A model generated the notes under the pieces. The model was not told the DNA's origin. It saw only the letters and a program-made list of their open reading frames with translations, and did not search any database. Position numbers and translations under genes: made by a program. This document shows positions 21,981 through 24,676 of a stretch of DNA of 32,000 nucleotides, piece by piece. Source of the stretch: Neisseria subflava (lineage in GTDB: Bacteria > Pseudomonadota > Gammaproteobacteria > Burkholderiales > Neisseriaceae); the NCBI RefSeq assembly GCF_005221305.1, contig NZ_CP039887.1, positions 1,218,905 to 1,250,904 on the forward strand, read 5' to 3'. Each line of letters begins with the position of its first letter. The stretch's first letter is position 1.

Positions 21981-24006
21981 GCTGATCCACACCCTTGCCC
22001 GCGATAACGACAAGGTTCAGGAAACCGCTTACCAATACGACCCGAACGGCAACCTCGTCCGCGCCGCCAACCGCCAAAGCATCACCTGCTTCGACTACAA
22101 CGGCAACGGTCAAATCATCGGCCAGCACCAATGGAAAGTGCCGTCCAAAGAAGAAAACGCCCAAAACGGTTTGCCCGAAACCGACTGGCGCGATGCGCAG
22201 TACGACATGCTGTACCTGCCCGTTACCGAAACCGTCCGCTACCACTACGACTTCAACGGCAACCGCACCGCCACCGTCCTGCCCGACGGCAGACAGATCA
22301 ACTATCTGTATTACGGCAGCGGCCACCTGCACCAAATCAGCCTCGACGACGAAGTCATCACCGACATCGAACGCGATCAGCTGCACCGCGAAATCTTCCG
22401 CACACAGGGTAAACTCGCCAGCCGCTACGAACTCGATCCCCTGGGTCGTCTGAAAAGGCAAATCGCCGCACTTAACGACCTGACGCAGACCGAGACAGAT
22501 AAGAACACTGTAACATCGGCTTATGCAGTCAAACGCAGCTACGGCTACGACCGTACCGGCAACCTGACCCACAGCACCGACCAGCGGACGGGAACGACGC
22601 ATTTCGAGTACGACAAACTAGGCCGGATTACCCAAGCCGGCAACGAACTGTTCGCCTTCGACCCCGCGCACAATATCCTCGACATTCCGACGGAAAAGGT
22701 CAAACCGTACCCTGCCCCCTCTCCCGTGGGAGAGGGTCGGGGAGAGGGCAAAACGACCGTGCCGCTTTCAGCCGACCTCAATCCCATCACCGACAACCGC
22801 CTGAAAACCTACAACGGCACGACCTATTACTACGACGAGCTCGGCAACCTGATCCACCGCGAACTGGCCGACGGCGAAGTGCAGAACTATTTCTACGATC
22901 TGCACGACCAACTGGTTAAAGCCGAAATCTTCAAAAAAGACGGCATGAAAGAAACTTGGGCGTACACCTACGACGCCTTGGGCAGAAGGATAGGCAAAGG
23001 CCGTCTGAAAAACGAAGAAGTTTCAGACGACCTCGAAGAGGAAACCGGATTCGTTTGGGACGGCAGCCACCTCTTACAGGAAGTCCAACCGGACGGCAGG
23101 TATACATATATCTACACCGATCCCGAAAGCTACGAACTCTTGGCACAGGTACATAACTGGACAACCGAAGGCGGCGAAAACCGTCAACAGACCCACTACT
23201 TCCACTGCGACCAAATCGGCATCCCTAGGGAGATGACCGACAAGGACGGCAATTTGTTGTGGTTCGGCAACTATACCAGCTGGGGCCGTCTGAAAGAGGA
23301 AACCAAGGTAACGAATAGCGCATACCAGCCCTTCCGTTTACAGAACCAGTATTGCGACCGTGAGACGGGGCTGCATTACAACTTCTTCAGGTATTATGAG
23401 CCTGATGCGGGGCGGTTTGTTAATCAGGATCCGATTGGGTTGTTGGGTGGGGAGAATATATATAGATTTGGTAATTCAATACAAAGCTGGATAGATCCTT
23501 TAGGATTGGATGGTTTTCAACTACTTCGAGATTATGGAAATTCTCCAGGTGTTCAAGCTGAATATCATAAAGCACTAGCAGCAGCCATGGCAAATCATCC
23601 AAAAACTCTACCAGCCTCTTCACACACATTAAGTATAGTTGCAGAAGGACAAGGGGCTGTAGGAGGTAGCGGTCGTTTATCTGTGATACACAATAATTTT
23701 CCAGACGGAACAACAGGTAAATGTTTAGCAGCGACTATCTGTGGAGAAACAGGAGCTGCAGAACGTTTAACGTTAGGGGGAGAATACTCATATAGCGCAA
23801 GCAACGTTTCTACTGGGTGGTCAAATTCAACATGCGTCAATGGTAGTGTAGCGACCCCAGTAGGCGGAGCTGGAGGTGGTGTATGTACTTCAGATCCTAC
23901 TCGTGGGCAAGCTGCAAGTAATACCTTTAATGCAAATATTTTATTTGGTGGCGGTGGCGGTGCTAGTGTAGGTAGATGTACAACATATTCATTGTGTAAT
24001 AAATAA
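19669..24006 (+). CDS. rhs: Rhs-family T6SS effector 2: identical PAAR-like head, YD-repeat shell, novel Gly/Cys-rich C-terminal toxin
   Basis: The ORF is 1445 aa with an AGGAG RBS. It has the core box HYFHCDQIGIPREMTDKDGN and the core end YNFFRYYEPDAGRFVNQDPIGLLGGENIYRFGNSIQSWIDPLGL (canonical DPxGL-x18-DPLGL). A 165-aa AT-rich tip follows. Confidence 0.95.
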   Translation: MAVNKIARKSSKFRVVFTVPDFCWPPPPAPPSVPPIPFPLFADLGGAQTVAKDVRLNRKPAFVFKASKTDKTYGDEIALPGRKGVKSRTATKPAWPMRHSSSVKIRKRYIVRTGDMFHMNGKFSKRLPPKTCLSCKGAVGAGRPVNPIHGLKFLTGETDFAFEGILPLVWSRSYYSDQDGTGWLGEGWSVPGCQRIIRDAAGLAYIDDQGRLFPLPEVDEDDEEPVLFESEQIWFSKNPDGHYVIASLDGSIALRFAPLVVAEDGSDEDSTLFPLVAVEDANGNHQRFIYHPLTGLPQYIIDGNGRVFSLNFGNVADEQSPKMRLLSVSLLEGLPAFGEAVRVGSPLVRYEYNGSGDLVRVIGRDGKVKRSFGYKNNLMVSHTDAAGLVSEYEYDHYTPTGKVLRNRTSLGEEWRFTYHEGYTEVTDVLGRTEQYHYDYNNELTKRVFADGSTNLMERDDLGRLLSHTDAMGRVTRYQYSNEGQVESITRPDGVILHFDYDDNYRLIRKSDAESRYHGYTYDEAGNLLTHTDPLKHITRFEYAGNGLLLSVTDPNGSSTAYHYNENHQPDRITDCSGYETKLSYTPEGQLARITDALGQHTEYHYDANQNLTLALYPDGSKETFGYDAAGRLKTHTDGEGHTTSYEYGQDGLPTRRTNALGHTFGYHYDKARRLVGLTNENGARYRFAYDVLDRLIAESGFDHKLTGYRYNAGNELIEQREYGDDATLAAKLMAQLGGQPVAKKDAAPLSDGLDSQTPLRITEFKRDVLGRLIHTLARDNDKVQETAYQYDPNGNLVRAANRQSITCFDYNGNGQIIGQHQWKVPSKEENAQNGLPETDWRDAQYDMLYLPVTETVRYHYDFNGNRTATVLPDGRQINYLYYGSGHLHQISLDDEVITDIERDQLHREIFRTQGKLASRYELDPLGRLKRQIAALNDLTQTETDKNTVTSAYAVKRSYGYDRTGNLTHSTDQRTGTTHFEYDKLGRITQAGNELFAFDPAHNILDIPTEKVKPYPAPSPVGEGRGEGKTTVPLSADLNPITDNRLKTYNGTTYYYDELGNLIHRELADGEVQNYFYDLHDQLVKAEIFKKDGMKETWAYTYDALGRRIGKGRLKNEEVSDDLEEETGFVWDGSHLLQEVQPDGRYTYIYTDPESYELLAQVHNWTTEGGENRQQTHYFHCDQIGIPREMTDKDGNLLWFGNYTSWGRLKEETKVTNSAYQPFRLQNQYCDRETGLHYNFFRYYEPDAGRFVNQDPIGLLGGENIYRFGNSIQSWIDPLGLDGFQLLRDYGNSPGVQAEYHKALAAAMANHPKTLPASSHTLSIVAEGQGAVGGSGRLSVIHNNFPDGTTGKCLAATICGETGAAERLTLGGEYSYSASNVSTGWSNSTCVNGSVATPVGGAGGGVCTSDPTRGQAASNTFNANILFGGGGGASVGRCTTYSLCNK
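23509..24006 (+). other. rhs-2 C-terminal toxin module, family unknown
   Basis: The module is 165 aa after DPLGL. I recognise no catalytic motif. It has six Cys (KCLAATIC, STCVNG, GVCTSD, GRCTTYSLC) and glycine runs (GGAGGGV, FGGGGGASVG). Confidence 0.6.
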
Positions 24007-24019
24007 AGGAGTAAACTTA

Positions 24020-24676
24020 ATGATTCATTCATGTATAAAGAAGGTAATATACTTAACATTATTTTTAATATCAATAGTTTCTTGCTACCCTACAGATAAC
24101 AATCTAGATGAAAAATCATTAATTAAAAATAAGAAGTATGCATTCTTGACAAATGTCACTCACCCCTCTCAAAAAGAAGTTGCCCCATTTGGATTAACTA
24201 TAGGCAAAATTACTGTTAATGAAGCGCTATCCAAATATCCTCAATTAATAAAGGCAGATAGTTCTTACATTAGTTATGGAAAAAAAGAAATACCAATGCC
24301 AAACACATACGCCTTATCCGTTTCTAATAATTTAACGGCGTTTTTACAGTTTGATGAATCAACTAATATCCTACAGAATGTTTTAATTTTCGGACTAAAG
24401 AGCGTAGATTTCGACATAATAAAACAAGAATTTAAGGATATATACTCTCCTTATGAAGAATATAATCCATCTGAATTTGAAGCTTTTTCTAGAGGAGAAA
24501 CCACCTTTGAAGATCAAAAAAAGTTTTTGGAAAAACATAAAAATGAAATAGCTCTATTTAAAAACAATGGCGTTATCATTATTTTAGGAAAATCTATAAA
24601 CAGCGATGAAGTAGTTATTTTTTATAGAAATACAAGCTATTTTCCAGTTTTAAAAAATAAAGCAGAAGCTTATTAA
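24020..24676 (+). CDS. Putative immunity lipoprotein for the rhs-2 toxin
   Basis: An ATG lies 13 nt after the rhs-2 stop with a strong AAGGAG RBS. The ORF is 218 aa with a signal peptide and lipobox (LFLISIVSC). It is AT-rich like the toxin tip. Confidence 0.7.
   Translation: MIHSCIKKVIYLTLFLISIVSCYPTDNNLDEKSLIKNKKYAFLTNVTHPSQKEVAPFGLTIGKITVNEALSKYPQLIKADSSYISYGKKEIPMPNTYALSVSNNLTAFLQFDESTNILQNVLIFGLKSVDFDIIKQEFKDIYSPYEEYNPSEFEAFSRGETTFEDQKKFLEKHKNEIALFKNNGVIIILGKSINSDEVVIFYRNTSYFPVLKNKAEAY

Follow-up and report, generated by a model that had tools for sequence, protein, structure and literature searches.

What does the C-terminal tip of an Rhs protein do when it resembles no described toxin, and in which compartment of the target cell would it act? 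The question is raised by Rhs-2, a PAAR-like Rhs protein of 1445 amino acids (aa) encoded within a 32,000-nucleotide stretch of Neisseria subflava DNA (hereafter, the window), whose last 165 residues are rich in cysteine and glycine and whose gene is followed by that of a 218-aa putative lipoprotein. The window is a type VI secretion system (T6SS) locus of this commensal Neisseria. Taken as a whole, the reading we lean towards is that the tip is an envelope-acting toxin to which the lipoprotein confers immunity, which sequence comparison makes somewhat probable.

The Rhs-2 gene (19669..24006, + strand) encodes an exact match of N. subflava QCL71084.1 / WP_137041028.1, annotated as "DUF6531 domain-containing protein." Its Pfam domains comprise Tox-PAAR-like PF13665 (E = 8.3e-16, residues 15-122), DUF6531, 15 RHS repeat matches, and RHS PF03527; a PAAR-like N terminus for mounting on VgrG is therefore present, as is an RHS/YD shell that closes in an Rhs-associated core with the DPxGL motif. 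The alignment to the NCBIfam model Rhs_assc_core TIGR03696 stops exactly at this motif, here DPLGL (23494..23508, + strand), which is the presumed autoproteolysis boundary, and by analogy with other Rhs proteins (PMC10684867) cleavage would take place there. Rhs-2 is also genetically linked to T6SS core genes, VgrG, and an adaptor, as expected for a T6SS Rhs toxin. GC content declines stepwise, being ~55% for the Rhs core, 44% for the tip, and 29% for the lipoprotein gene, a drop that is usual in exchangeable toxin cassettes. In each testable defining feature, the system is an ordinary PAAR-like Rhs polymorphic toxin with an immunity gene.

The tip comprises Rhs-2 residues 1281-1445 (165 aa, 23509-24003). 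Six cysteines are found at tip positions 72, 78, 109, 126, 157, and 163 (codons at 23722, 23740, 23833, 23884, 23977, and 23995, + strand), and they make up 3.6% of the tip compared to 0.6% of the 1280-aa Rhs core, a six-fold enrichment (binomial P = 6.5e-4). Glycine accounts for 17% of residues, and the strings VGGAGGGV, LFGGGGGASVG, and GRCTTYSLCNK are all there, just as an earlier interpretation of the DNA letters (the sequence-only reading) had described for the 165 residues after DPLGL.

The same reading had recognized no toxin motif in the tip, and database searches bear this out. When the tip and the lipoprotein were searched against Pfam, NCBIfam, and PDB sequences, as single sequences and as family alignments, nothing credible was returned at E ≤ 10. 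The tip matched no nuclease, deaminase, or ADP-ribosyltransferase model of Pfam or NCBIfam; at E ≤ 10, it likewise matched no glycosidase, amidase, lipase, or peptidase model and no bacteriocin or microcin model in these two collections. Profile matches to fused RecA chains were dismissed as composition artifacts, as no matched stretch passed the threshold by itself, and matches to EBP2 profiles, located in the Lys/Glu-rich part of the lipoprotein, were dismissed on the same grounds. The surveys of Neisseria T6SSs that were consulted do not mention the tip, and in database labels it occurs only within "hypothetical protein" entries. Judged by its sequence, the tip is a previously unclassified putative toxin domain in a known kind of system and lies outside every described toxin family.

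The lipoprotein gene (24020..24676, + strand) encodes an exact match of N. subflava QCL71085.1 / WP_137041029.1 ("hypothetical protein"); the N. macacae counterpart is labeled "Lipoprotein." Its open reading frame (ORF) begins with MIHSCIKKVIYLTLFLISIVSC and satisfies the PROSITE-type lipobox rule, with a predicted signal peptide at 24020-24082 and the previously noted lipobox IVSC ending in Cys22 (24083-24085, + strand). The rule is satisfied in all five homologs, among which the lipobox cysteine is invariant, and no membrane helix was found in the mature protein. The 218-aa protein thus has the export signal (a signal peptide or a lipobox) that is expected of immunity proteins to periplasmic T6SS hydrolases. 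The AAGGAG ribosome-binding site that had been reported for this gene is present (24006..24011, + strand, read from the sequence), but its position had been misstated: it overlaps the final base of the Rhs-2 TAA stop and stands 8 nt before the ATG, and it is the ATG that lies 13 nt past the stop. No promoter-like site was detected on the + strand between the two genes, so they are probably co-transcribed. An inverted AG-mucDUS pair (24773..24804, unstranded; 13-nt arms, 100% complementary), a match to a terminator-like hairpin, closes the toxin-immunity unit. The next coding sequence after the lipoprotein gene is already an orphan Rhs fragment, and no second candidate immunity ORF was found in the interval.

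Relatives of the tip were sought at several scales. A word-indexed search of 5.8 billion proteins returned one relative, and an exhaustive HMMER search of 1.84 billion representatives returned five matches, four of them real and one a weak match to a repeat protein; a profile search for further relatives added nothing new. Scanning one genome per species across 185,579 species with a two-sequence tip alignment yielded a single locus, in a Pelistega metagenome-assembled genome (MAG), while a metagenome scan yielded three near-identical Neisseria loci. Two further tips, 76% and 74% identical, were recovered on the contigs of lipoprotein homologs. The family as recovered is thus tiny, at about five relatives, and narrow (Neisseria, Kingella, and Pelistega). 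Among its members are orphan copies (L006 and Pelistega L001/L005), a 67-aa fragment (P0006), and a degenerate remnant (P0009, locus L002) whose uptake sequence is of the Kingella type.

Five loci (the window, L009, L010, L004, and L001/L005) have sequence beyond the tip, and in every one of them the next gene encodes a homolog of the 218-aa lipoprotein. Identity falls in step, from 76% to 34% for the toxin and from 81% to 29% for the lipoprotein (Spearman 0.88 over non-independent pairs), and a variable tip is hence accompanied by a co-varying small gene, orphan cassettes included. Because the lipoprotein homolog adjoins the tip in five loci with correlated divergence, there is strong comparative evidence that the two form a cognate toxin-immunity pair. 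The immunity role that the sequence-only reading had given the lipoprotein accords with this conservation, which extends down to 34% and 29% identity; on this basis, the tip would be toxic and the lipoprotein would neutralize it.

The most distant pair was observed at L001 7022-10252 (= L005 4656-7886), in Pelistega sp. MAG JAUNUI010000037. Here an orphan 235-aa Rhs C-terminal fragment stands directly after a 319-aa truncated vgrG fragment, next come genes for a multi-pass membrane protein and a separate PAAR protein, and the whole set lies between tgt and yajC. The Pelistega lipoprotein has Asp after the lipid-modified cysteine, unlike the Neisseriaceae copies, which have Tyr, His, or Gln there. 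On a metagenome contig (L004 21-673), the tip homolog is split by a frameshift into ORFs of 151 and 64 aa and has one extra residue within the last Cx5C motif; this copy could be a pseudogene or an assembly error.

Conservation was assessed in an alignment of six tips, two of them damaged: those of the window, L009, L010, L004 (frameshifted), Pelistega L001/L005, and L002 (the degenerate remnant). Residues 1-40 of the tip (23509..23628, + strand) are variable, with the lowest conservation in the alignment, and form a predicted helical linker (low-confidence AlphaFold2 helices at 2-10 and 13-29), whereas residues 41-165 (23629..24003, + strand) form a conserved Cys/Gly-rich core that is predicted to be all-beta, with eight strands. 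Twenty positions are invariant in all six tips (G52, I60, N62, C72, C78, E80, G82, A83, L87, G90, E92, Y95, S107, T108, C109, C126, G147, G151, C157, and T159), and among intact copies these hold down to 34% tip identity. Five of the six cysteines are thus invariant, and the sixth, C163, is kept by all intact copies; like the invariant lipobox cysteine, they are no chance features of the sequence. The pattern G147xxxG151xxx[G/S]155 is conserved too, with both glycines invariant and G or S at 155 in five intact copies; it gives the tip a GxxxG or glycine-zipper motif, although such a short motif is common in Gly-rich sequence and is therefore weak evidence. No His, Asp, Lys, or Arg is invariant across the six tips, which rules out the catalytic residues commonly used by amidases, lipases, metallopeptidases, hydrolases, nucleases, and ADP-ribosyltransferases. 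Catalytic signatures were also sought in the invariant columns (Cys-His, GxSxG, the R/STS/ExE order of ADP-ribosyltransferases, sortase, and YkuD-like), and none fits. As for periplasmic hydrolase motifs, the tip has no HExxH, and its GGSGR differs from GxSxG and is not conserved.

Remote-homology searches and structure prediction, which had been proposed as checks for the tip and the lipoprotein, led to no known cytoplasmic toxin family; the AlphaFold2 models are poor (pLDDT ~45). The AlphaFold2 secondary-structure sketch of the tip, itself of low confidence, shows a helical first 30 residues and then eight strands arranged as hairpins. In this model, C109 and C126 are placed symmetrically about the predicted turn of one hairpin, and in both Cx5C motifs (72/78 and 157/163) the paired cysteines fall on the same face of a predicted strand, so that a two-rung disulfide ladder between those strands would be possible. 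The conserved cysteines suggest that disulfides may indeed form in the tip.

Where, then, would the tip act? Because the immunity protein appears to be exported and lipid-anchored, and because the six retained cysteines can form disulfides only outside the cytoplasm, we infer that the compartment is the envelope or periplasm, and the case for this is reasonably strong. In addition, the tip of the neighboring protein Rhs-1 is phospholipase A2 (PLA2)-like, as is that of N. cinerea Nte1, which is toxic only when directed to the periplasm (PMC8263058), suggesting that this machine already serves envelope toxins. The preference of the sequence-only reading for the envelope over the cytoplasm is accordingly retained on the strength of the conserved cysteines and the periplasm-facing partner, and it has precedents (PMC5792426, PMC6889166, PMC6899460), among them lipoprotein immunity proteins to periplasmic toxins (PMC6899460).

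These features are consistent with the following scheme. The tip would be cut at DPLGL, carried reduced and unfolded inside the Rhs shell, and fired with VgrG into the periplasm of a neighboring cell, where its six conserved cysteines would be oxidized. A C109-C126 disulfide would close a beta-hairpin and two further disulfides would form the ladder between the Cx5C strands (C72/C78 with C157/C163), giving a compact all-beta protein of ~125 residues that would damage the cell envelope. The 218-aa lipoprotein, tethered to a membrane through a linker of ~35 residues and facing the periplasm, would bind the incoming toxin. Killing may proceed by oligomerization through the glycine-zipper hairpin GxxxGxxx[G/S], with permeabilization or depolarization of the inner membrane and no enzymatic activity. 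We hold this specific step, nonenzymatic membrane damage by oligomerization of a glycine hairpin, only tentatively.

Several points weigh against an envelope-acting toxin of this kind. AlphaFold2 modeled both the tip and the lipoprotein with low confidence (pLDDT 44.6 and 45.6, respectively); a Foldseek search of the PDB with the tip model returned nothing above a TM-score of 0.25, and a fold search of the PDB with the lipoprotein model returned nothing meaningful. The tip has no hydrophobic membrane-helix segment (maximum 19-residue Kyte-Doolittle mean of 0.83; grand average of hydropathy of -0.13), and its beta-amphipathicity is not above that of shuffled sequence (z = 1.2). It is also unlike Tse5-CT, the C-terminal toxin of a Pseudomonas aeruginosa Rhs protein, in that it lacks a hydrophobic segment, is predicted to be all-beta, is Cys-rich, and has no detected sequence similarity to it. 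Immunity proteins to colicin-type pore-formers have been reported in the inner membrane (PMC6889166). A family of six sequences with two damaged members is too small for firm inference from conservation, and its invariant glutamate pair, E80 and E92, is possibly catalytic. Known pore-formers are usually countered by integral membrane proteins, and a globular lipoprotein on a tether is seen more often where the toxin is a soluble periplasmic enzyme. The combination of a nonhydrophobic tip with a globular tethered immunity protein fits a Glu-dependent envelope enzyme or an inhibitor of an envelope machine equally well. One earlier suggestion is not supported: the likeness to microcins or membrane-active bacteriocins had been drawn from composition only, and it finds no model match, no hydrophobic segment, and no amphipathicity beyond that of shuffled sequence.

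The alternative that survives best follows directly from the glutamate pair. The tip could be a periplasmic enzyme with a new fold that degrades or modifies a polymer of the envelope or one of its precursors (peptidoglycan, lipid II, or lipopolysaccharide) through E80 and E92, situated on neighboring strands, with the lipoprotein blocking its active site. Both glutamates are invariant, as are the nearby Y95, S107, and T108, and the tip lacks hydrophobic character. Moreover, T6SS effectors that are amidases, muramidases, lipases, or peptidases typically have immunity proteins that are soluble or lipid-anchored in the periplasm (PMC6899460; Tli1 cited in PMC6889166). However, models of glycosidases, amidases, lipases, and peptidases remained unmatched even at E ≤ 10, the invariant columns lack His, Asp, Lys, and Arg as well as a Cys-His pair and GxSxG, and the conserved core is a small one of ~125 aa, with 17% glycine. 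We therefore regard an enzyme of this type as a serious but rather unlikely candidate.

A nonenzymatic inhibitor is improbable. Here a disulfide-locked beta-sheet would add a strand to an essential envelope machine, for example, that of outer-membrane protein assembly or lipopolysaccharide assembly or a cell-wall synthase, and the lipoprotein would be a decoy. Predicted all-beta hairpins with conserved cross-strand cysteines, the joint absence of a catalytic motif and a hydrophobic segment, and an immunity protein that faces the periplasm are all compatible with it, yet the argument proceeds by elimination and the data suggest no target. To our knowledge, there is no precedent for a strand-addition inhibitor among T6SS toxins, which also counts against it.

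Less probable again is action in the cytoplasm, for example, by a metal-binding toxin with the cysteines as zinc ligands, in which case the lipoprotein would not be its immunity protein. Most Rhs tips are nucleases or RNases, including those of Nte2 to Nte6 of N. cinerea, and toxicity was shown for Nte2 to Nte5 upon their production in the Escherichia coli cytoplasm (PMC8263058). Metal binding by six cysteines is possible in principle. Nevertheless, in five loci the lipoprotein is the sole partner conserved beside the tip, and the two diverge together; the stretch from the immunity gene to the next Rhs fragment holds no further ORF, and nuclease, deaminase, and ADP-ribosyltransferase models are unmatched. 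The Cx5C and Cx15-16C spacings are, besides, not typical of zinc knuckles. Least probable of all is a decayed or inert tip that no longer has any toxic function. Several relatives are damaged (L004 by a frameshift, P0009/L002 by degeneration, and P0006 as a 67-aa fragment), but damaged orphan copies are normal in Rhs loci. The copy in the window is intact and continues the reading frame of a full Rhs gene, at least two deposited N. subflava genomes carry it in identical form, the 20 invariant positions hold down to 34% identity, and an intact lipoprotein gene stands beside each intact copy. Overall, a cytoplasmic target and an inert remnant are both unlikely.

The remainder of the window comprises the machinery and the debris of the same T6SS locus. 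Across 115-14994, Pfam assigns TssF (partial), TssG, ClpV/TssH, TssJ, TssK, TssL with an OmpA domain, TssM, VgrG, and DUF2169. The Tss core genes F, G, H, J, K, L, and M occupy 115-11437, upstream of vgrG, the spike gene (11568..13841, + strand; Phage_GPD at E = 8.5e-75, Gp5_trimer_C, and Phage_base_V). An adaptor or chaperone gene (13858..14994, + strand; DUF2169 at E = 3.9e-67) stands ahead of the PAAR-like Rhs genes, and the first of these, the long Rhs-1 gene (15075-19220), lies between it and Rhs-2. The order vgrG-DUF2169-rhs is known from Neisseria T6SS-B clusters (PMC10210955). Uptake sequences of two dialects, 12 AG-DUS and 8 AG-mucDUS, are intermixed in the window. A plasmid origin was considered and rejected: PLSDB contained no DNA or protein match, and the proteins sit on 2.2-Mb N. 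subflava records.

Rhs-1 (15075-19220) and Rhs-2 (19669-24006) are tandem near-duplicates, with 99.3% nucleotide identity over the first 3 kb; their proteins are identical over a stretch of ~700 residues and diverge only past about residue 1000. This duplication is likely a substrate for tip-swapping recombination. Within Rhs-2, an in-frame insertion of 35 codons (22681-22785; DIPTEKVKPYPAPSPVGEGRGEGKTTVPLSADLNP) is absent from Rhs-1. It holds the palindrome CCCTCTCCCGTGGGAGAGGG, looks like a small repeat element, and leaves the frame of the shell unbroken. The Rhs-1 tip (18831-19217) consists of 129 aa past DTLGW, with a PLA2-like signature, HGNWCGP ... HDICY; it is similar to N. cinerea Nte1 and matches Pfam Phospholip_A2_4 at E = 0.005, below the family cutoff. 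The ORF after it (19111-19527) is very AT-rich (25% GC) and looks like a small membrane immunity protein. Orphan Rhs fragments trail the immunity gene of Rhs-2 at ~24860-26379, 26601-26906, 27143-28837, and 29291-29578. One carries a Lys-rich tip with no Pfam match and is followed by a 101-aa hydrophobic ORF, one stops short of any tip, and another is a brief remnant; they are probably older toxin cassettes that were displaced.

Unannotated Rhs tips are common, and finding one is in itself unsurprising to specialists; most characterized Rhs tips, on the other hand, are cytoplasmic nucleases. If the envelope reading is true, a disulfide-dependent, envelope-acting tip without a known fold would represent a new killing mechanism, possibly with a new envelope target, and the second case after Tse5 of an Rhs shell that delivers a toxin acting from the periplasm. 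With this T6SS, commensal Neisseria compete against other bacteria of the human upper airway, pathogenic relatives among them (PMC8263058). The narrow family in Neisseria, Kingella, and Pelistega would make a tractable case of how a toxin cassette originates and spreads, and its conserved cysteine framework, lipoprotein immunity, and extreme rarity make this small, easily tested pair a good experimental target. More speculatively, and in our estimation doubtful, the tip may found a new class of T6SS toxins: small, nonenzymatic, all-beta proteins that would be inert while reduced in the Rhs shell, activated by the disulfide machinery of the victim, and lethal either as an assembled beta-type pore or by blocking an essential machine of envelope assembly, with a tethered lipoprotein decoy as immunity.

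How does the pair compare with known systems? Class II microcins and Gly-rich bacteriocins resemble the tip in being rich in Gly, Ser, and Ala, in carrying little charge, and in having cysteines close to the C terminus. They are, however, small peptides exported by way of a leader, with small, membrane-embedded immunity proteins, whereas the architecture of the tip is that of a 165-aa domain fused to a 1445-aa Rhs protein with a 218-aa lipoprotein partner. Periplasmic T6SS hydrolases (Tae amidases, Tge muramidases, Tle lipases, and Tpe peptidases) have family catalytic motifs (a Cys-His pair, a lysozyme-type fold with Glu, GxSxG or HxKxxxxD, or HExxH) that the tip does not, although a Glu-based enzyme would be possible through E80/E92. 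From the helical glycine-zipper pore-formers (Tse4, Tse5-CT, and Ssp6), with which it has a GxxxG-type motif in common, the tip differs in lacking a hydrophobic segment and detectable homology, and in its predicted strands rather than helices (low confidence). Ssp6 of Serratia marcescens is nonetheless, like the tip, a small toxin with no recognizable enzyme motif, and it acts from the periplasm, as is proposed for the tip. Its immunity protein Sip6, which protects against this ion-selective pore-former and is located at the outer membrane, is proposed, as is the Rhs-2 lipoprotein, to catch the toxin while it is still in the periplasm and at a distance from the inner membrane (PMC6889166). In contrast to the Rhs-2 tip, Ssp6 stands alone as an effector and is found only in Enterobacteriaceae; Sip6 contains transmembrane helices and no lipobox, and neither is similar in sequence to the Rhs-2 pair.

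Closer parallels exist in delivery and activation. Tse5 of P. aeruginosa is, like Rhs-2, a T6SS Rhs protein, and its C-terminal fragment of ~150 aa is proposed to hit the target inner membrane from the periplasm (PMC10684867); Tse5-CT, a pore-former, is described as integral to the membrane, entering lipid spontaneously and being toxic from either side (PMC10684867). Ssp2 and Ssp4 are periplasmic effectors that need the DsbA of the target cell: made in a reducing cytoplasm, they gain activity only once disulfides have formed in the periplasm of the target (PMC5792426); they belong to families unrelated to the tip, for which the six conserved cysteines point to a similar dependence. The nearest counterpart of the locus is that of N. 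cinerea 346T (T6SS-B; Nte1/Nti1 and Nte2/Nti2), which, like the window, has vgrG, DUF2169, two PAAR-like Rhs genes, and then orphan Rhs fragments. The six Nte toxin domains that have been described are all unlike the Rhs-2 tip. Nte1 (PAAR, Rhs, PLA2-like) and Nte2 (PAAR, Rhs, RNase) occupy the positions matching Rhs-1 and Rhs-2 (PMC8263058), and where N. cinerea has the Ntox34 RNase of Nte2, the window carries the unclassified Cys/Gly-rich tip with its lipoprotein partner.

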